Assembly: GCA_965262645.1 (NCBI GenBank) | Contig: CBDHFO010000017.1 | Coordinates: 2,616,582 to 2,680,581, forward strand | Length of the DNA stretch: 64,000 nucleotides | Reading direction: 5' to 3' | DNA from: Candidatus Marinacidobacterium sp. | GTDB lineage: Bacteria; Acidobacteriota; Vicinamibacteria; Marinacidobacterales; Marinacidobacteraceae | Part shown: positions 30,197 to 42,255 of the stretch, piece after piece | Layout of the letters: every line of letters starts with the position of its first letter | Position numbering within the stretch: position 1 is the stretch's first letter | The notes under the pieces: model-generated | What the model was told of the DNA's origin: nothing | Seen by the model: the letters and a program-made list of their open reading frames with translations, nothing else | Databases searched by the model: none | Made by a program: the position numbers and the translations under genes

Positions 30197-32389
30197 ATGT
30201 ACCGGGTGCGCTCTGCGGTTGCGGTTCTGGCCGTTCTGGGCTGGGCTGCGTCCGGCTCCGCGTTCACCGGAACGGTGCTCCTCCTCAACGGCGAGCCCGC
30301 GGCGGGCGCCATCGTTCAGATCCTCGGGCATCCCGGTTCAGCCACCACCGACGCCAACGGCCGCTTCGAGTGGCTACCGGACCCGGTCCCCCCCTTCCAC
30401 GTGTTGGTGGTGCTTCCGGGCGAGCGCTACACCGCCCCCGTCGTCGTCGAGTCCTTCGACGGGAGCGAAGTGGAACTTCGCGTCGAGCCGCTCGGGGTGC
30501 AGGAGAGCGTCACCATCACCAGCGGCGCCGTGCCGCACACCGACGCCACGCCGGGAAGCGCCCCGGCGGTCATTTCCGGCGAGGCGATCCGCGTCCGCCA
30601 GGCGCCGCGGCTCACCGACGTGCTGGAGGCGGTTCCCGGAGGCGGGCGCGACAGCGATCTCCACGCCGGGGTCCCCTCGATTCGCGGCCTCTCGGGGGGC
30701 CGGACGGTGCTGCTCCTGGACGGGGCGCGGATCACCAGCGAGCGCCGGGCCGGGCCGAGCGCCACCTTCCTCGATCCGTTCTTCCTCGAAGCCGTCGAGG
30801 TGGTGCGCGGTCCGTCCTCGGTGGCCTACGGCTCGGACGCTTTCGGCGGCGTCATCCACGCCCGGACGCGGCGCCCGGTTCCCGGCGACCCCCTCGCGGC
30901 TCGGGCCCGCGCCACCTGGGGCGCCGGCCTTCCGGAAGCGAGCTTCGGGGCCGAGGTCGCGGGGACCGTTTTCGAGACCGGTCTGCTCGCCCAGGCGCGG
31001 CGCCGGGTCTTTTCCGAGTACTCGAGCCCCGAGGGCAGGGTTGCCCGGTCGGGCGCCGAGGATTACGGATTCCTGCTCCGCGGTTTGCGGGAGGTCGCGG
31101 GCGGCTTGCTCGGGCTGGGGCTCCAGGTCGACGCCGCGCGGAACGTGGGGCGCCCCCGGCGCTCCTCGTCGCTCACTTCCTATCCCTTCGAGGATTCGGC
31201 CCGGCTCGTTGCCGACTACCAGCTCGCCCCGCGCTGGGGGTTCGCGCGGCTGGACGCCACCGGGTTCGTCGGCGCCCACCGCCTGCTGACGCGGCGCGAG
31301 CAGGGCGGGGAAGCCGCGGATTCCGAGGTCGCGGCGCATGATTTCATGCTGCGGACGCGCGGCGTCCGGCCTCTCCGGGACGGCCGCCTCGAACTCGGCG
31401 CCGAGTTCCTGAGCCGTTTCGATGTCTATGCCGGGACCGGCGCTGACGGAATGACGGCGGCCCTCCCGGACGGGGGAGAGTTCGGCTCCGGCCTCGATGG
31501 CGCGGTGCGCCGCGAGGCGTCGATCTACGGCCACGCCGAGCAGCCGTTCGACGGGCGTCTTGCCGGGAGCGCGGGCGCGCGGCTTTCGGCGATCTCCAGC
31601 CGGGCCGGCCCGGCGTCCGGCGGCGCCCGCCCCCGGCCGGAAACGAGCCACGGAGCGCTCAGCGGTTTCCTCGCCCTGCGCGCCGACCTGACGCCCGGGG
31701 TCGCGCTTACCGGCCAGCTTTCCCGCGGCTTCCGCGATCCCACCCTCTCGGATCGCTACTACAGCGGGCTCACCGGCCGCGGCGTGGTGTACGGAAACCC
31801 CGACCTCCTCCCGGAGCGCGCGCTCCAGACCGACCTCGCCCTCCGCTTCGACCGGGGCGCCGTCCATGGCGGGCTCTACGCCTTCCGCTACCGCATCACC
31901 GATCTCGTCGAGCGCTACGAGAACGGTGAGGATCTCTACTTCTTCCGGAACCGGGGCGAGGCGCATCTTTCCGGCGTCGAATTCGAGGTCCAGATCGGCG
32001 CTCCGGGTGACAGCTTCCTGCTGGATCTCGCCGGCGGACTGACGCGCGGCCGGACGGAGGACGGGGCGGCCCTCGACGGAGTGCGCCCGGCGAACTTCCG
32101 TGCCGGGCTCCGCCATCGCCTCCGGGCGCGGAGCTTCGCCGAGGTCGTCCTGCTGGCGTTTACCGCGGACAGCGATCCAGGTCCCACCGAGTCGGCCATG
32201 GATGCCTACGCCCGCCTCGACGCCGCCGTCGGCTTCCCGATTGCCGGTGGCGCCGAACTGCGCGTCTCGGGCCGCAACCTGTTGAACGCGACCTACCCGA
32301 TCAGCGCCGACGCTCGCGCCGTCCTTGCCCCCGGGCGCAGCCTGGTCGGAACCATCGTCTGGACCCTCGGGAGCGACGCCGGTCCCTAA
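30197..32389 (+). CDS. TonB-dependent outer-membrane receptor
   Basis: Signal peptide, CarboxypepD_reg-like GTVLLLNGEPAAGAIVQI, plug motifs (IRGLSGGRTVLLLDGARI, VEVVRGPSSVAYGSDAFGGVI) and a long beta-barrel. Confidence 0.75.
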   Translation: MYRVRSAVAVLAVLGWAASGSAFTGTVLLLNGEPAAGAIVQILGHPGSATTDANGRFEWLPDPVPPFHVLVVLPGERYTAPVVVESFDGSEVELRVEPLGVQESVTITSGAVPHTDATPGSAPAVISGEAIRVRQAPRLTDVLEAVPGGGRDSDLHAGVPSIRGLSGGRTVLLLDGARITSERRAGPSATFLDPFFLEAVEVVRGPSSVAYGSDAFGGVIHARTRRPVPGDPLAARARATWGAGLPEASFGAEVAGTVFETGLLAQARRRVFSEYSSPEGRVARSGAEDYGFLLRGLREVAGGLLGLGLQVDAARNVGRPRRSSSLTSYPFEDSARLVADYQLAPRWGFARLDATGFVGAHRLLTRREQGGEAADSEVAAHDFMLRTRGVRPLRDGRLELGAEFLSRFDVYAGTGADGMTAALPDGGEFGSGLDGAVRREASIYGHAEQPFDGRLAGSAGARLSAISSRAGPASGGARPRPETSHGALSGFLALRADLTPGVALTGQLSRGFRDPTLSDRYYSGLTGRGVVYGNPDLLPERALQTDLALRFDRGAVHGGLYAFRYRITDLVERYENGEDLYFFRNRGEAHLSGVEFEVQIGAPGDSFLLDLAGGLTRGRTEDGAALDGVRPANFRAGLRHRLRARSFAEVVLLAFTADSDPGPTESAMDAYARLDAAVGFPIAGGAELRVSGRNLLNATYPISADARAVLAPGRSLVGTIVWTLGSDAGP

Positions 32390-32972
32390 CCGCCGGTAGG
32401 CCGAGCGGCCCGGTGCCGACGGTGGGGGCCTGGCCGGGAATCCAAGGGCGCCCGATCGGGGTTGTCGAAGAACAGGACACGGTGCGTCCCGATTCGATCA
32501 GGACAAATACCGTCGTAGGTCGCTCGTGCCATTTGGCTATGGGAACCGTTTCTCCAGTGGTACCGATGTCTGCTCTGCCGCGTCCCGTCATGGCGGAGCG
32601 CGCTCTGCCGTGGTGACAGTCCGGAACACGCGGCGAGAGTTCAACGTAGTGACAGATCTAGCTCCAAATGGGACGGCCGTGAATCGGTGGCTGTCGAAAA
32701 CTGTGGGAACCATGATTCCGTTCGACACGTATGGAGTCCGCAATGTTCTTGACATTCGTACGTGACTGGTTTATGTGACATTCATTACACCCTCAAAGTC
32801 CTGGACTTTCCGTGTTCTGAGAGGGTCTGAAGAGCGTTTGTACTGTGAAAGAATGCGAATACGTTCCACGCGCAAGAAATCACCTTTGGCACGCACGACT
32901 GATGCGTCTATTCCGTGCTGTGTGTGACATATGACACTGACACTCGGTTACGGGTGAGATGAGAACATCGCG

Positions 32973-34673
32973 ATGAATCTCACAGTCGCCGAGTTGGCAC
33001 GCGCCGTAAGGAAACACGAAAACTATGTGCGCCAACACATCCATCGGCGCCACCTTGCCGTTCGGAGACAGGGACGGAGTGTTTGTGTACCGCTTGACGA
33101 GGCTGTGAAATGGGCCGGCGCACGTGGCCTTTCTTTTACTCCGCCGAAACGGGTCCGGCTGACAGTCCTGGAAGAGGGAGAGAGGATTGCGCGGCTGACG
33201 GTTCTCGCCTGGAGCCGCCCGGACGGGAGGTCGCGGAATCTGCTCACGCTCCTGCGTCATCGGAAGCGCGAGTCCTTGGGTCCGTGGTCAGGCGAACCGG
33301 AAGCGGTCTGGGCTCTTGAATCACTCGGTGACGAGCTGAGTCTTTTTTCCTTCAACGCTTCGTATGCGGAGTGTCGAAAGCACCTCGACCACATCCTTGC
33401 TTCGGAGACGCTTGAGGTGCAGGGACAGGAGATTCACTACAACCTGGAGGACAAGGCCCGGCATCACTGGGCGTACCGGGACTACCGACGCCGTTCGGAT
33501 GCGTCCATACGCAGCCCGTTCTCGATGCACAGCGCCGCGATTACCGAGTACTGGAGCTTCGAGGACGAACCACACAAGCGTTGGCTGTCTCTACCCGACC
33601 CTCCGCCGACCCGCGTCCGGTCGGGACTTCGTCGCCTCGGGTTCCCCCTGGACCGATGCCCGGAGCGGGTCGGGAACCTGGTCATCGCCGCTGCCGAAGA
33701 CGCGATCACCTGTCGACTGACAGCGCATCAGGACCAGACGCTCCGACTCCACGTAGATGCCAAGGCTCTGTTGCCCGAGACGTATCGCGCGACGGTTTGG
33801 GCGAGCCACAGCGGAGACGAAGTACTGCGTAGGGAGGTGCCAATAACCGGCGGGCAGACAACCATCGAATTGATCTCCGGGGTGGATCGCACCGGTTTTG
33901 CGATCTGCAGAGACGTCGACGGCCAGTACGTGGATCTTGTCGAGAACGTGCCCAATAGCGAGGCAATGCATACCGTGATGCGGGGACACGAGTCGGCGCC
34001 GCGGTCTCCGGGGCCGGGATCCCGCGTTCCGCGTCGCGTCGGCGCTCCCCATTCGGCTTCCACGGCCCCTGGGTATCCCGATGTAACCCCCAGTCGACTC
34101 GACAGGGATATCCGGCAGCAGTGGCTCCATGGAGTGGCTTATCGGAAGGAAGCAGGCGCCAGGCGCGATGCGAACCTCTTGCGCTTCGGTCCCGGCCGGT
34201 TCGAGGAGGCGGCGCGGCACTTCTTGGATCTCGTGGCCAACGACTCGGAGACCGCAGGGCCCATATACCTCGCCGATCCGTGTTTCGTCGGCCACACGAT
34301 GGCGGATGAGGTGGCACAACTGTTCGTGGAAATGTGCGCCGCCATGCAGCGCAGGCCGCTGCGGATTCTGTGTGTCGAACCGGAGGCGGCCGATGCTCCA
34401 CCCTGGTGGGCAGGTTACCTTCGAAAGATCCGGGCAAACGTCACCGTGCGGACGTTCGTGAACCGAAGCGACGAGCGCGGAGGTTTCCACGACCGATATC
34501 TGATTACTCCCGCGCGTGAAATTCTGATGACGAACTCGTTCAACGGGTGGAACAGATTCGGGGTGACCTTCGTGAGTCTTCCCTACGGCGTGTACCGTGC
34601 AGAGGCGCAGCAACTGTGGGCTATGGACATGGATGCGCCAGCGTCGGACATCCTCGTGCGTGAGATCTCGTAG
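32973..34673 (+). CDS. uncharacterised 566-aa protein: N-terminal HTH, C-terminal PLD/MIT_C-like 'HDR' module
   Basis: MNLTVAELARAVRKHENYVRQHI (excisionase/MerR-like HTH). C-terminus GPIYLADPCF...LRILCVEP...GGFHDRYLITPAREILMTNSFNGW. Confidence 0.6.
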   Translation: MNLTVAELARAVRKHENYVRQHIHRRHLAVRRQGRSVCVPLDEAVKWAGARGLSFTPPKRVRLTVLEEGERIARLTVLAWSRPDGRSRNLLTLLRHRKRESLGPWSGEPEAVWALESLGDELSLFSFNASYAECRKHLDHILASETLEVQGQEIHYNLEDKARHHWAYRDYRRRSDASIRSPFSMHSAAITEYWSFEDEPHKRWLSLPDPPPTRVRSGLRRLGFPLDRCPERVGNLVIAAAEDAITCRLTAHQDQTLRLHVDAKALLPETYRATVWASHSGDEVLRREVPITGGQTTIELISGVDRTGFAICRDVDGQYVDLVENVPNSEAMHTVMRGHESAPRSPGPGSRVPRRVGAPHSASTAPGYPDVTPSRLDRDIRQQWLHGVAYRKEAGARRDANLLRFGPGRFEEAARHFLDLVANDSETAGPIYLADPCFVGHTMADEVAQLFVEMCAAMQRRPLRILCVEPEAADAPPWWAGYLRKIRANVTVRTFVNRSDERGGFHDRYLITPAREILMTNSFNGWNRFGVTFVSLPYGVYRAEAQQLWAMDMDAPASDILVREIS

Positions 34674-36817
34674 TGGCTGGCCCGTCCGGGACCGAACTCG
34701 CGCTGTCTCCCGTAATTCGGGCGGCGGTCTGGCGGATCTTCAGCGCCGGCGCGGCGCCCGGGACCAGAGGATCGGCTTTCGAGAACATCGAGCCCGTGAT
34801 CCGGCTGCACGTACCGCGGGCAGACCAGAATCGTGCCATCGGGACCATCCGAAGCTGGTTCGACGCGGGGACGCACGCAAGATGGCTGAATCCGGATCGC
34901 GCGGCGTTGGCTGCGGAACTGGTGCTTGAGGGCGTCGGCCCACGGCGTTCCGAGGATGCGATCTGGGCGATCGCCTCCATCGGGCTCGATCTTTCGGCTG
35001 GCATGATTCGTCGGCGCTGGTCGTCGGGTGAGAGTGACTCGTTTGTCGCGGCAGCGATCGAAGCGCTGAACGGCCTGGTGGCCGACTCTCCGATTGGGGG
35101 TAACTCGGCTGGGGAAGGGGAAGAAGCGGACGACGGAGGCTTTCGAGAGGCCGCATTGCGTGACGGGATGGTGGGCGCGTTCGCGCGTCTTGAGAAACAG
35201 AGTCTCGAACTCGTGAACCAGGGGCTGCACCCCACGGTGGCCAACCTGATCGATCTGGCGGTTGATCTGTCTCCTGAAGGCTCCCCGTTGCTCATCGAAC
35301 GGCTGCAAGCGCCGACGATGCAAGCGAAGGCGGCCCGCCGAATGGTGGCGCGGACGTCTCCACGCGAGCTGCCCCGGATCGTCGAATGGATCACGAACCG
35401 CTCGGTTGAGGCCGCCGTGGCGCTGTCCATCGTGCACACCCTGAGCGCGGTCCGGAAGATGGACGAGGGCCGGTTGGCCGGGGCCATCCTGAAGTCGCCC
35501 AAATCCGTAAGGGACGACGACGTCACCAGGGAGAAGGAGCCCCCGGACGCCGCCGCAAGTTTGCTGGCCCAACTGTTGGGACGGTTGGGACGCCTCGATC
35601 CACCGGTTTGCCTGCGTTGGGTCGGCGAACTTTTGAGCCGGGCGTCGCAAGCACTGTCGGCATCCGGCGATGAAGGAAAACCGCGCCGACTTGTGGAACT
35701 GGAAGAAGGGTGTACAAGACTGGCGGCAGGCCTCTTCCAGGATTGCGCGTCCCCGGATCTGCTCTCTCAATTCCAGTTCGGTCTGCGTCCTGGCCGAAGG
35801 AAGCGGTGGGTCCGCCACCAAACGGGGATTGCCAAGGCGATGCGGGAGCTGAGTCCGAAGCGCGCGGCGGAGCTCGCGCAGGCCACCCTCGATGAACACC
35901 GGCGCCGGTTGGCGGAGCCGTGGGACGGCCACTACCTCGCCTTCGACTGGGGCGACTGGAACGACCGAGAGTGGCTTGAAGGGTTGGGAACAGCGCTCGC
36001 GCTGTCTGGCGAAGAACTCGATCTCCACGTGTGGGTAGCGAATGAGTGCCGAGACCTGCCGCTCAGTGTCTGGGATGCTGAGGAGGATCTCGACTCGTTT
36101 GCGATCTCGGAACAGATCGCCCAGCACTGGTTGCTGGTGGCGCTGCTCGCGATTCCGCGCCGCAGCGAGTTCGGCCAGCCAATCGAGCACTCCCAGGTCT
36201 GTGCCCTGGCCGAAGCCGTGTGGGCGCATTGCAGGTTTTGCCGGCAACACCTCGACAAACACCCGGAAGCATCTGTCGCTGCCGAACTGGCTGCCCGCTA
36301 TGCAATGCAGTTCGGCCAGGCAGACGATCAGTGGGTTCTTGACCAGGCCCGCCGTGAGGGCGTCGGCCCCAGGGCCCTCTGCGTGCTCGTAGAAGAGCGA
36401 CGAGTCCGCCGCCGGCAGCCGGGAGAGGGCAATCCCGGCTACGACGAGATGATCATGGCCGAGCTTGTGCGCATTGCTTCGAACCGGTTCGAGGATGGTG
36501 GCCAGTTCGATCTGGACACCCTGGGGTACTGGGGAAAGCTGTGGCTGTCCCTCGGCGCCGTGGATCAGGCGGAACGCACGGCGATGGCAATCGTCAGTTT
36601 CCCCTTGCGGGCGACGGATCGGAACTTCCGCATTCTGGCGCTGAAACTCCTCGGCCTGGTCGTGCGGACTCGCAAGCCGGCGCGCGGTGTCACGGAGTAC
36701 GTGGCCCCGCTCTACAACCAGCTCTGGCCCGTGTTCGGAAGAACCCCGGCCGAGGAGGAGGTAGGCCGCCAGGAGATCGAGCGGGCGTTCATCGGCTCGG
36801 AACTCATCGCTCTCTAG
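34673..36817 (+). CDS. uncharacterised 714-aa alpha-helical protein
   Basis: GTG overlaps the upstream stop (TAGTG at 34671-75). Long uninterrupted ORF with a helical-repeat-like composition. No Walker or nuclease motifs seen. Confidence 0.55.
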   Translation: MAGPSGTELALSPVIRAAVWRIFSAGAAPGTRGSAFENIEPVIRLHVPRADQNRAIGTIRSWFDAGTHARWLNPDRAALAAELVLEGVGPRRSEDAIWAIASIGLDLSAGMIRRRWSSGESDSFVAAAIEALNGLVADSPIGGNSAGEGEEADDGGFREAALRDGMVGAFARLEKQSLELVNQGLHPTVANLIDLAVDLSPEGSPLLIERLQAPTMQAKAARRMVARTSPRELPRIVEWITNRSVEAAVALSIVHTLSAVRKMDEGRLAGAILKSPKSVRDDDVTREKEPPDAAASLLAQLLGRLGRLDPPVCLRWVGELLSRASQALSASGDEGKPRRLVELEEGCTRLAAGLFQDCASPDLLSQFQFGLRPGRRKRWVRHQTGIAKAMRELSPKRAAELAQATLDEHRRRLAEPWDGHYLAFDWGDWNDREWLEGLGTALALSGEELDLHVWVANECRDLPLSVWDAEEDLDSFAISEQIAQHWLLVALLAIPRRSEFGQPIEHSQVCALAEAVWAHCRFCRQHLDKHPEASVAAELAARYAMQFGQADDQWVLDQARREGVGPRALCVLVEERRVRRRQPGEGNPGYDEMIMAELVRIASNRFEDGGQFDLDTLGYWGKLWLSLGAVDQAERTAMAIVSFPLRATDRNFRILALKLLGLVVRTRKPARGVTEYVAPLYNQLWPVFGRTPAEEEVGRQEIERAFIGSELIAL

Positions 36818-37060
36818 CCGCCCGACGGTGTCCGGAGACGGCCAGGGGTGGGGCAGCCTGCCCGTCCGTGTTACGCCGCGCTGCCTCCGAGGACGCCCTT
36901 CAAGCCGCCGGCTCGTTCCGGATCCTGCCTCGCGGTTGCGCACCCCGAGGTGATTCGCATCGCCAGTCGCAGCCCTTGGGATGCGAAGATCCCCTGCGGT
37001 GCGATCTTCCGCCTCTGACGCTGGCGTTCGGGGCGGCGCCGTGCCGGCGAACAAATAGCC

Positions 37061-37678
37061 ATGACAACGAAACCCGGTGACGGACCAGGCACCCACCAGG
37101 AGCGCATGGCGGCGCTCCAGGCCGAAGTGCGGAAGAAGCGCGCCACCGCCCGCGATCCGGGGCGGGGGCTCGTGCTGGTCCACACCGGGGACGGGAAGGG
37201 CAAGTCCAGTTCCGCCTTCGGGGTGATCGCGCGGACGCTCGGTTGGGGTCGGCGGGTCGGCGTGGTTCAGTTCATCAAGGGCAACTGGAAAACCGGTGAG
37301 CGTCAGTTCTTTGGCCGTTTCCCGGAGCAGGTGGTCTGGCGGACCCTGGGTGAGGGATTCACCTGGGATACCCAGGACCGGGCTCGTGATGTCGAAGTCG
37401 CCGAAGCCGCGTTCGCCGCCGCGCGGGAGATGCTCGTTTCCGGCGATTTCGACCTCGTCGTCCTCGACGAGATCAACGTGGTGATGAGCTTCGACTATCT
37501 CGGCTGCGACGCCGTCCTCGCTGGCCTGAAGGCGCGCGCCGCGCGCACGAGCGTGATCCTGACCGGGCGCGGCGCCCTCCCGGAGGTCATGGACTACGCC
37601 GATCTGGTCACCGAGATGCGGGAGGTGAAGCATCCCTTTGCGGCCGGGATCAAGGCCCAGCGCGGGATCGACTACTGA
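37061..37678 (+). CDS. cobO: cob(I)yrinic acid a,c-diamide adenosyltransferase
   Basis: GLVLVHTGDGKGKSSSAFGVIARTLGWGRRVGVVQFIKGNWKTGE and DLVVLDEIN are CobO/BtuR signatures. Confidence 0.85.
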   Translation: MTTKPGDGPGTHQERMAALQAEVRKKRATARDPGRGLVLVHTGDGKGKSSSAFGVIARTLGWGRRVGVVQFIKGNWKTGERQFFGRFPEQVVWRTLGEGFTWDTQDRARDVEVAEAAFAAAREMLVSGDFDLVVLDEINVVMSFDYLGCDAVLAGLKARAARTSVILTGRGALPEVMDYADLVTEMREVKHPFAAGIKAQRGIDY

Positions 37679-40452: not shown

Positions 40453-41249
40453 CAAGGAACCAAGGACCGCCAGGAGCGCAAGGAGCGCAAGGAGCGCCGG
40501 TCTTCAGACCGGCATCGCGGCCGCAGGCCGCGAAACTCCGGCTCTTATCGACCCCCATTACGTGGACCCAACCGGGGACGGCGCAACACCCTCCCGGGCC
40601 AACGCAAACAGTCAGGAGCGCCAGGAGCGCCAGGAGCGCCGGTCTTCAGACCGGCATCGCGGCCGCAGGCCGCGAAACTCCGGCTCTTATCGACCCCTAT
40701 TACGTGGACCCAACCGGGGACGGCGCGACACCCTCCCGCGCCAACGCAAACAGTCAGGAGCGCCAGGAGCGCCAGGAGCGCCGGTCTTCAGACCGGCATC
40801 GCGGCCGCAGGCCGCGAAACTCCGGCTCTTATCGACCCCCATTACGTGGACCCAACCGGGGACGGCGCGACACCCTCCCGGGCCAACGCAAACAGTCAGG
40901 AGCGCCAGGAGCGCCAGGAGCGCCGGTCTTCAGACCGGCATCGCGGCCGCAGGCCGCGAAACTCCGGCTCTTATCGACCCCCATTACGTGGACCCAACCG
41001 GGGACGGCGCGACACCCTCCCGGGCCAACGCAAACAGTCAGGAGCGCCAGGAGCGCCAGGAGCGCCGGTCTTCAGACCGGCATCGCGGCCGCAGGCCGCG
41101 AAACTCCGGCTCTTATCGACCCCCATTACGTGGACCCAACCGGGGACGGCGCGACACCCTCCCGGGCCAACGCAAACAGCCAGGAGCGCCAGGAGCGCCA
41201 GGAGCGCCGGTCTTCAGACCGGCATCGCGGCCGCAGGCCGCGAAACTCC
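40453..41249 (+). repeat. tandem array, 142-bp unit x about 5.6
   Basis: The core GGAGCGCCGG recurs at 40491, 40633, 40775, 40917, 41059 and 41201 (period exactly 142). Units are about 97-100% identical. Each unit is (CAGGAGCGC)x3, a double hairpin, then about 70 nt. Confidence 0.9.
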
Positions 41250-41505: not shown

Positions 41506-42255
41506 TTGATCCCGCGCGGCGCCAAAGGAGTTGTCCTCGGGACAATTCTCGCTTCCGCCGCGGTGGCCTCCGTCTCCTCGACGGCCCCGCAAGAGACCTG
41601 GCGGGGCCTCCGCGTAGCTCCCGAAGAGCGTTGCACCCGTTACGACTCGGACGACTACCGCTACTCGCAACGGGTCGAAGACGCCATCATCGCGGACCTC
41701 GGCGGGATCTACTCGCCCTATACGGGGGAGTGGTTTGACACGAAGCGGGAGACCGACATCGAGCACCTGGTGGCCCGTTCCGAGGCGCATGACAGCGGGC
41801 TGTGCGCCGCCAGCGCGGACACCAGGCGCCGGTTCGCCAATGACTCGCTGAATCTGACCCTCGCAAGTCCGGCGGTGAATCGGCACCAGAAGAACGACAA
41901 GGACGCGGCCGAGTGGCTGCCGGAAAGGAACCGGTGCTGGTTTGCGAGTCGTGTCGTCCAGGTACGACGGAAGTACGACCTCACGATCGACCGGCGAGAG
42001 GTCGGGGTCCTGGAAGGCCTGCTGTCGGGATGCCGTTCGGTAGCGATGGTCCCTCCTGGGTCGGGCCGCGCGCCAGCTAACCGATCGAACGCGGAACCGG
42101 ACGCGCGACGCCCATCTGATCACCAGACCGGATGCGGGCCTTTCGCCAACTGCACGGCGCTCCGTCGGGTGCACCCACGCGGGGTCCCACGAGGGCATTG
42201 CGCCTATGCCAGCAAGATGGACCGGGATCGAGACGGTTGGGCCTGCGAAAGATGA
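41506..42255 (+). CDS. secreted HNH/DUF1524-type nuclease with C-terminal excalibur domain
   Basis: TTG start and signal-like VVLGTILASAAVASVSS. DIEHLVARSEAHDSG...NLTLASPAVNRHQKNDKDAAEWLP (DUF1524 HNH). C-terminal CTALRRVHPRGVPRGHCAYASKMDRDRDGWACE (excalibur). Confidence 0.7.
   Translation: MIPRGAKGVVLGTILASAAVASVSSTAPQETWRGLRVAPEERCTRYDSDDYRYSQRVEDAIIADLGGIYSPYTGEWFDTKRETDIEHLVARSEAHDSGLCAASADTRRRFANDSLNLTLASPAVNRHQKNDKDAAEWLPERNRCWFASRVVQVRRKYDLTIDRREVGVLEGLLSGCRSVAMVPPGSGRAPANRSNAEPDARRPSDHQTGCGPFANCTALRRVHPRGVPRGHCAYASKMDRDRDGWACER

Follow-up and report, generated by a model that had tools for sequence, protein, structure and literature searches.

A laterally mobile, translationally coupled two-gene module from genomic islands of at least 12 bacterial phyla

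What do two long, coupled genes do between a gene for a TonB-dependent receptor and the cobalamin gene cobO? We addressed this question for a cassette in a 64,000-nt stretch of Candidatus Marinacidobacterium sp. DNA (assembly GCA_965262645.1, contig CBDHFO010000017.1, positions 2,616,582 to 2,680,581), hereafter referred to as the window. The cassette comprises 2 open reading frames (ORFs), namely, ORF1 (32973–34673, + strand; ATG start, 566 amino acids, aa) and ORF2 (34673–36817, + strand; GTG start, 714 aa), which are joined by a TAGTG stop/start overlap (34671–34675, + strand) such that the TAG of ORF1 and the GTG of ORF2 have one base in common. Coordinates, lengths and coupling match exactly those given in a first-pass annotation, made from the sequence alone, which had taken the pair for an accessory insertion that might be a defence or conflict system of a kind not yet described. 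We show that the pair is an autonomous, laterally mobile and selectively maintained module that resides in genomic islands and forms a small family undescribed in the libraries and literature searched. The strict pairing, the genomic contexts, the lack of a library match, and a fold and motif resembling those of phospholipase D (PLD) all support the idea of an accessory conflict cassette, its defence part being an inference from the context. In our judgement, the balance of probability tips toward a self-contained, horizontally mobile defence or conflict module of an undescribed family, a judgement kept modest because it combines guilt by association with a nuclease-like effector.

Pairing, distribution and genomic surroundings

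The loci analyzed were obtained from a scan of one genome per species (59 loci) and supplemented with loci fetched by protein identity. In every complete locus (~65, from at least 12 phyla), an ORF2 homologue is located directly 3' of ORF1 on the same strand, so that the co-occurrence of the 2 genes, which the first-pass annotation had suggested checking, was found regardless of whether the search started from ORF1 or from ORF2. The pairing is kept in a Bacteriovoracia locus at only 23% identity, and in each of 3 loci reached via distant ORF2 homologues (31% to 43% identity), ORF2 is immediately preceded by an ORF1-like gene of 566 to 596 aa, whose end abuts or overlaps it. A stop/start overlap is present in 62 of the 67 loci, and the identical 1-nt overlap in 46. 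Clustering of the neighbours revealed no third conserved gene.

The hosts belong to Acidobacteriota, Latescibacterota, Nitrospirota, Gemmatimonadota, Chloroflexota, Bacteroidota, Spirochaetota, Alpha- and Gammaproteobacteria, Nitrospinota, Binatia, and Bacteriovoracia, with identities of 36% to 52% across cross-phylum contexts. All 59 genome matches are metagenome-assembled genomes (MAGs), with no isolate genome among them, and many of the MAG names and host taxa are typical of marine sponge microbiomes. For instance, MPMW01 is bin61 from Aplysina aerophoba (PMC5649159), and the SB06xx bin series includes Poribacteria. Judging from host taxa and MAG names, the family is apparently restricted to sponges, yet it spans at least 12 phyla. 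Sponge symbiont genomes have been reported to be enriched in restriction–modification (R-M) and toxin–antitoxin (TA) genes (PMC8163846, PMC5649159).

Both genes are under purifying selection (dN/dS of 0.12 to 0.31), and in 57 of 62 loci the cassette has a lower G+C content than its flanks (mean difference, 4.3 points). Two MAGs carry 2 divergent copies each, in different contexts: L019 and L045 in bin61 (MPMW01), whose ORF1 sequences are 72% and 40% identical to that of the window, and L051 and L058 in a Dehalococcoidia genome (OZ250156.1), with 37% and 46% identity, as would fit paralogues with different specificities. Several copies are decayed, with ORF2 split in L018, a frameshift in ORF1 of L036, in-frame stops in ORF1 of L037, ORF1 of L058 interrupted by ~1.3 kb, and only fragments in L068; such decay is expected of dispensable or costly accessory genes.

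Outside the Vicinamibacteria clade of the window, the pair occupies ~45 unrelated contexts, 5 of which we annotated with Pfam. The pair is found within an operon for type I R-M, where hsdS is on one side and an OLD-like TOPRIM gene, DUF1828/1829 and hsdR are on the other; between AbiEi/AbiEii and a PhdYeFM antitoxin together with a CAP12-PCTIR TIR protein; ahead of hsdM-hsdS-Abi_C-hsdR, another type I R-M system; ahead of genes for a large N6/N4 methyltransferase and a ResIII helicase, which we read as a type III-like R-M system; and among hsdR, a transposase, Peptidase_M78/DUF4411, AbiEii and DruA. Thus, R-M and/or abortive infection (Abi) genes lie within 8–10 kb in 5 of the 5 annotated contexts, a qualitative observation. 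Among 276 neighbours from 43 contexts, counted without a matched background, the most common Pfam assignments were phage integrases (10), DDE transposases (at least 12), MmeI-type IIG enzymes, and resolvases, and TrwC relaxase and type I R-M components were also represented. PADLOC identified components of type IIG, I and III R-M systems and PDC-S01 among the same neighbours. The residence in defence islands that the first-pass annotation had proposed looking for is therefore apparent in diverse contexts rich in R-M, Abi, integrase and transposase genes.

The most recurrent neighbour is an MmeI-family type IIG R-M enzyme of ~960 aa, encountered in ~6 of the ~43 contexts (L020:15776–18652, L038:14179–17064, L049:6578–9469, L045:682–3375, L043, and L030). 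It lies immediately 3' of the pair in some loci and was considered as a third component, but rejected, as it is confined to these ~6 contexts with variable position and strand, indicating co-localization and no operon.

Could the pair instead serve the mobile elements that surround it, either as an excision or recombination-directionality factor with PLD-type DNA processing, or by excluding competing plasmids or integrative and conjugative elements instead of phages? The excisionase-type (HTH_17) N-terminus of ORF1 and the integrases, resolvases, transposases and TrwC relaxase among the commonest neighbours would agree with such a role. However, no integrase or recombinase is consistently linked to the pair and none is found near the cassette in the window, att-like flanking repeats are missing, the cassette is stable at a single chromosomal site in Vicinamibacteria, and searches of IMG/VR, INPHARED and PLSDB yielded no relatives of the pair on viral contigs, phages or sequenced plasmids. 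We consider this explanation quite improbable.

Domain architecture of ORF1 and ORF2

ORF1 homologues fall into more than 448 clusters, all ~565 aa in length and alignable end to end. The AlphaFold2 (AF2) model of ORF1 (mean pLDDT 76.8) is multidomain. From the N-terminus, it comprises a winged helix-turn-helix (HTH) domain of the HTH_17/excisionase type (residues 1–50; 32973–33122), an alpha/beta domain (70–195) followed by a short helical segment and an immunoglobulin (Ig)/FN3-like beta-sandwich (235–325; the whole region, residues 70–325, at 33180–33947), a linker (326–381; 33948–34115) predicted to be disordered (pLDDT below 50) and poorly conserved (56% column identity), and a C-terminal domain (~385–566; 34125–34670) in which a long helix precedes an alpha/beta domain; all of these are encoded on the + strand. 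The region 70–325 is modelled with pLDDT values of 80 to 94 over most of its length, and Foldseek found FN3/Ig matches for it in PDB and BFVD.

An excisionase/MerR-like HTH had been noticed at the N-terminus in the first-pass annotation, and the AF2 model and a fold match bear out an HTH there. The HMM signal is weak in the window sequence, where residues 3–46 match HTH_17 with an E-value of 0.003 and 18 bits, below the cut-off of 27–29 (PF12728, TIGR01764), and stronger across the family: 22 of 40 members match (best E-value 6.5e-6), and the homologues P0039 and P0089 carry a precomputed PF12728 annotation. A phage HTH protein from BFVD superposes on the domain with a root-mean-square deviation (rmsd) of 1.4 Å over 62 columns, and the HTH is among the best-conserved domains of ORF1 (81% mean column identity).

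Beyond the HTH, both proteins fall outside the described families searched. Pfam and NCBIfam gave no above-threshold match for ORF1 or ORF2, PADLOC-DB v2 including its PDC candidates returned 0 families for either protein at E-values up to 1 (libraries up to 2023), PHROGs gave 0 matches, and neither protein nor either profile matched a PDB sequence. The first-pass annotation had raised the possibility that profile searches would assign both proteins to a housekeeping pathway; those run here (Pfam, NCBIfam, PADLOC, PHROGs) assigned neither.

The best-conserved stretch of ORF1 (85% column identity) lies in its C-terminal domain and reads F505-H-D-R-Y-L-I-T-P-x-R-E-x-x-x-T-N-S-F-N-G-W526 (34485–34550, + strand), that is, HxR(x)4P(x)7NSxN. 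Relative to the HxK(x)4D(x)6G[S/G]xN pattern of HKD enzymes, H506, S522 and N524 are kept, Lys is replaced by R508 and Asp by P513, and one residue is inserted before NSxN. In the ORF1 alignment, Y432, A434, D435, F505-H-D-R-Y-L510, T520, S522, G525 and W526 are invariant throughout the family. Using the whole-chain model as the query, Foldseek recovered the PLD alpha/beta fold for the C-terminus: the top PDB match was TrmBL2 (5box/5bpd/5bpi; E-values of 1e-4 to 5e-4, probability 1.0), polyphosphate kinase 2o8r was also among the matches, and BFVD yielded a Terrestrivirus PLD phosphodiesterase domain protein (probability 1.0, rmsd 5.1 Å, 149 columns). We take TrmBL2 and polyphosphate kinase both to contain PLD-fold domains. 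In hhalign comparison with the plasmid nuclease Nuc and its family, F505–W526 was the sole aligned segment and fell exactly on HDK...GSFN, with FHDRYLITP..TNSFN of ORF1 opposite QHDKVIIVD..TGSFN of Nuc (P = 0.0055, probability 6.6%).

No Pfam HMM of the PLD clan scored above its gathering threshold; the window ORF1 had no such match at E-values up to 1, and PLDc_2 matched 1 of 40 members (E-value 0.046). Pfam likewise provided no link to a known family, PLD included, for 10 of the most distant relatives. Its profile matched as few as 74 of 1.84 billion representative proteins; in most of the full-length matches (~410–580 aa) the domain is C-terminal, and the shorter ones resemble fragments. 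Because of the Foldseek matches and the motif alignment with Nuc, we read the C-terminus of ORF1 as a predicted PLD-fold domain with a divergent HKD-like site, outside every Pfam PLD family. This agrees with one half of the first-pass suggestion of a PLD-like/MIT_C-type 'HDR' domain, namely, the PLD-like fold and motif. MIT_C of MITD1 has a PLD-like fold with a non-canonical motif; membership in MIT_C (PF16565) was rejected, with 0 of 40 members matching at E-values up to 10 and MITD1 structures outside the 50 best PDB fold matches.

Single-HKD PLD nucleases, such as Nuc of IncN plasmids, the type IIS enzyme BfiI, and Zucchini/MitoPLD, resemble ORF1 in that each chain has a single PLD-fold domain, in which H-x-[K/R] ... 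S-x-N occupies the same elements of secondary structure. BfiI further resembles ORF1 in joining its PLD domain to a distinct domain for DNA binding. By analogy with these three nucleases, the single copy of the domain would form its active site upon dimerization and may cut nucleic acid. Unlike these nucleases, ORF1 has the substitutions and insertion described above, additional alpha/beta and Ig-like domains and an obligatory 714-aa solenoid partner, and, unlike BfiI-like R-M systems, the module, having no third conserved gene, has no linked cognate methyltransferase.

That partner, ORF2, had been described as helical in the first-pass annotation, and its AF2 model (pLDDT 83.9, pTM 0.79) indeed consists of 35 helices arranged in a solenoid. 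Foldseek returned only generic HEAT/TPR/ARM matches with TM scores of at most 0.29, and Pfam searches with 36 family members gave scattered single matches only, with no recognizable eukaryote-like repeat family; no signal peptide is visible by eye. ORF2 is the fastest-evolving gene of the locus, and its invariant residues include PL-VWD-E (463–470: P463-L, W467-D, E470), C459, H519, E538, R542, and many Trp. The stop/start overlap would lead to synthesis of ORF2 in fixed stoichiometry with ORF1. We suggest that the solenoid may bind ORF1 and either keep it inactive, or sense a component of an invader and then release or activate ORF1.

The similarity to TrmB/TrmBL2, archaeal proteins in which a winged HTH is followed by a coiled-coil helix and a PLD-fold C-domain, raises the alternative that ORF1 is a transcriptional regulator with a non-catalytic, ligand-binding PLD fold and ORF2 its scaffold or co-regulator, together controlling a niche-specific regulon, for example, one for symbiosis. 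ORF1 shares with these proteins the N-terminal HTH and the long helix leading into a PLD-fold domain; TrmBL2 is the best PDB fold match (E-value 1e-4), Lys and Asp of the canonical HKD motif are missing, the conserved site arrays described below suggest sequence-specific DNA binding, and the family seems confined to one habitat type. Unlike in TrmB, the HTH of ORF1 is of the HTH_17/excisionase type and ~320 extra residues separate it from the C-terminal module; the TrmB HMMs PF01978 and PF11495 (Regulator_TrmB) matched neither the window ORF1 nor any of the 40 members, leaving a resemblance in fold only. TrmB C-domains are not known to contain an HKD-like motif, whereas that of ORF1 is invariant, and an invariant H-D-R...S-x-N in the best-conserved stretch of the protein is more in keeping with an active site than with a pocket for ligands, which would be variable. 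Furthermore, no conserved target genes are found nearby, no regulon is evident from the half-site arrays, which were examined upstream of the cassette, and patchy cross-phylum spread, low G+C, decayed copies, and R-M, Abi and transposase surroundings are rare for regulators. Helical repeat proteins are a known theme among sponge symbionts (PMC8163846), but ORF2 has neither a signal peptide visible by eye nor a recognizable repeat family of the eukaryote-like kind. Taken together, we regard such a regulator, in place of an immune system, as very doubtful.

Repeat arrays upstream of ORF1

The 583-nt non-coding gap upstream of ORF1 (32390–32972, + strand) contains 2 groups of short repeats. The proximal one, GTGACA-TA-TGACA-C-TGACAC (32924–32943, + strand), lies at -48 to -30 from the ORF1 ATG, with its 3 TGACA copies beginning at 32925, 32932 and 32938, and resembles an operator; in the upstream alignment, its GTGACA and TGACAC do not vary across 12 relatives. 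The distal cluster, TGACA-N-TCGTA-N-GTGAC ... T[T/G]AC ... TTACA (32749–32795, + strand), was recognized as a footprint of TGAC/TTAC half-sites conserved in 12 Vicinamibacteria loci. The first-pass annotation had pointed to the TGACA repeats and to a TTGACA-N17-TATGTG string. Both are present, and the repeats are conserved; the string, located at 32749–32777 inside the distal cluster, did not hold up as a promoter, since a consensus scan scored 0 sites and neither the -35 nor the -10 hexamer is conserved in relatives. A structured leader or small RNA was also considered for the upstream region and rejected (RNAalifold consensus of -8 kcal/mol, covariation -0.26; no Rfam family), and no convincing small ORF was found in the gap.

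Equivalent, clade-specific arrays occur just upstream of ORF1 in every clade, including TGTAAATTACA repeats in Nitrospirota, Latescibacterota and others, often directly after a TTGACA, TGTAC-N-GTACA arrays in Dehalococcoidia, and TTACG/CGTAA arrays in Gemmatimonadota. At least 3 half-site copies are present in 26 of 39 loci, and the half-site density is 3.2 per 100 nt upstream of ORF1 vs 0.23 elsewhere in the same loci, a 14-fold difference for a pattern that was chosen after inspecting the data. The half-site type tracks the recognition helix of the HTH, with ...RQHIHRKHL accompanying TTACA and ...RQHIRRKNL accompanying GTACA, a correlation confounded by phylogeny. These patterns suggest that the array is an autoregulatory operator: ORF1 would be the DNA-directed component, its excisionase-type HTH binding the 5-nt half-sites upstream of its own gene and thereby repressing the operon.

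Autoregulatory operator arrays and translational coupling are also classic features of type II TA systems, and the pair might accordingly be an addiction module that stabilizes islands, with ORF1 as an autoregulated PLD-nuclease toxin, ORF2 as a large antitoxin, and phage protection secondary or absent. Its occurrence in islands with integrases and transposases, the AbiE, PhdYeFM and M78/DUF4411 TA-type modules among its neighbours, and the TA enrichment reported in sponge symbiont genomes (PMC5649159) point the same way. Nevertheless, both proteins are far above the typical size of TA components, it is the putative toxin and not the antitoxin that bears the HTH, and the pair persists at one chromosomal site across a clade with dS of up to ~1, where there is no mobile element to stabilize. 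We consider addiction as the principal function rather unlikely; TA and abortive-infection defence are, in any case, not mutually exclusive.

The cassette site in Vicinamibacteria and the case for defence

In the window, the gene 5' of the cassette encodes a TonB-dependent receptor (30197–32389; Pfam Plug and beta-barrel, E-value 2e-32), and the 3' gene encodes CobA/CobO/BtuR (37061–37678; Pfam E-value 9e-61), beyond which lie ABC, periplasmic-binding-protein and FecCD importer genes (Pfam). The flanks are those named in the first-pass annotation, and its AT-richer leader of ~580 bp and trailer of ~240 bp measure 583 nt (G+C of 0.53–0.57, 0.566 overall) and 243 nt (36818–37060, + strand; G+C of 0.71), respectively. 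The G+C content of the cassette is 0.641 (0.61–0.66), compared to 0.664 for the remaining window and 0.70–0.75 for the immediate flanks. A consensus scan found no terminator-like site on the + strand of the downstream gap. Scans of the window revealed no att-like flanking repeats of note around the cassette and no integrase among the ORFs near it, the same outcome as in the earlier inspection, and detected 0 tRNAs and 0 Rfam families, a cobalamin riboswitch included.

In relatives whose flanking proteins are 76% to 95% identical, the pair always follows the same TonB receptor and precedes cobO, with a single exception, L016, in which cobT (DBI_PRT, E-value 7e-114) and cobS (E-value 2e-47) are located between ORF2 and cobO (L016:13931–15696; Pfam). 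The resulting cobT-cobS-cobO order places the cassette inside a cobalamin salvage/uptake cluster, and the constancy of the site indicates that the cassette interrupts this cluster and has been present since before these genomes diverged. An empty TonB-receptor/cobO junction, a comparison suggested by the first-pass annotation, was not found among these genomes: the cassette is present in all relatives whose TonB receptor is 75% identical or more, and in those with a receptor at 42% to 46% identity synteny is fully lost, so that no empty junction is demonstrable. An extra 226-aa gene with no significant Pfam match separates the TonB receptor from the cassette in a 76%-identity relative (L014/L005:8729–9409); the content of the junction is thus variable within the clade.

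The cassette genes are more divergent than their surroundings. Between L020 and the window, the major facilitator superfamily (MFS) protein, the TonB receptor and CobO are 82% to 89% identical, vs 71% for ORF1 and 62% for ORF2. For L014 and L020 compared with the window, dS of ORF1 and ORF2 is 0.87 to 1.04, ~2 times that of the flanking MFS, TonB-receptor and cobO genes (0.38 to 0.81), which could reflect allele replacement by recombination, or weaker synonymous constraint or codon bias in the lower-G+C cassette.

Two further features were observed downstream. Positions 40471–41249, directly 3' of the FecCD permease gene, hold 5.5 tandem copies of a 142-bp unit (98% matches), and a CAGGAGCGC x3 run lies within each; this array has no Rfam match. 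A 249-aa ORF (41506–42255, + strand), ~4.7 kb downstream of the cassette, combines GmrSD_C (a DUF1524-type HNH nuclease domain; E-value 2e-8) with a C-terminal Excalibur calcium-binding domain (E-value 6e-12) and may encode a secreted or periplasmic nuclease.

Several points weigh against assigning the module to defence. The HKD motif is non-canonical, since Arg takes the place of the catalytic Lys and Pro that of Asp and one extra residue is present; the probability from hhalign is low, as given above, and no PLD HMM reaches its threshold. Because TrmBL2, structurally the nearest match, is a DNA-binding protein whose PLD fold is non-catalytic, the C-domain of ORF1 is possibly non-cleaving and may bind a ligand or DNA instead. 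In the window, the neighbours are housekeeping cobalamin and TonB genes, with no defence genes, and the cassette is fixed at this one site throughout the clade. With no relatives in the phage, plasmid and IMG/VR collections, no transfer vehicle is evident, although this is neutral for defence itself. Finally, genes of mobile elements are no less prominent around the pair than those of defence, and with the background unmatched, a status as genomic-island cargo is for this reason more firmly shown than defence.

Among described defence systems, type I Mokosh (MkoA/MkoB) and DISARM (DrmC) contain a PLD nuclease and follow a 'sensor plus nuclease effector' layout. The pair is like them in coupling a putative PLD-type nuclease to a large non-enzymatic or sensing partner and in residing in defence islands beside R-M genes. 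It differs in having no helicase or ATPase, in carrying its own HTH and operator on the effector, in its purely alpha-solenoid partner, and in giving no PADLOC match. Such 'sensor plus PLD-nuclease effector' modules are the closest working likeness, and no sequence-based test of those run placed the module in a described family; a literature search, which was not exhaustive, returned nothing relevant on a described system of this architecture. With these considerations, we retain defence or conflict as the favoured reading. A more specific version, which we put forward tentatively as possible, is that of an immune system hitherto undescribed and spread laterally among disparate marine sponge symbionts, in which a self-repressing HTH-PLD(HxR) nuclease would be held in check by, or triggered via, a solenoid sensor of a new fold family, the operator and the recognition helix co-evolving by clade.

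The small size and sharp definition of the family, its invariant motifs and the predicted operator make mutational and binding experiments straightforward to design. If the module does protect against phages or plasmids, it would represent a new combination of effector and sensor in bacterial immunity, the effector combining an HxR version of the PLD nuclease site with a repressor domain of its own in one chain and the sensor being an orphan solenoid. Lateral transfer among sponge symbionts has been proposed, and defence genes have been reported to be enriched there (PMC8163846, PMC5649159); the family described here would then exemplify the lateral sharing of one module by at least 12 phyla, apparently within the same host-associated community.

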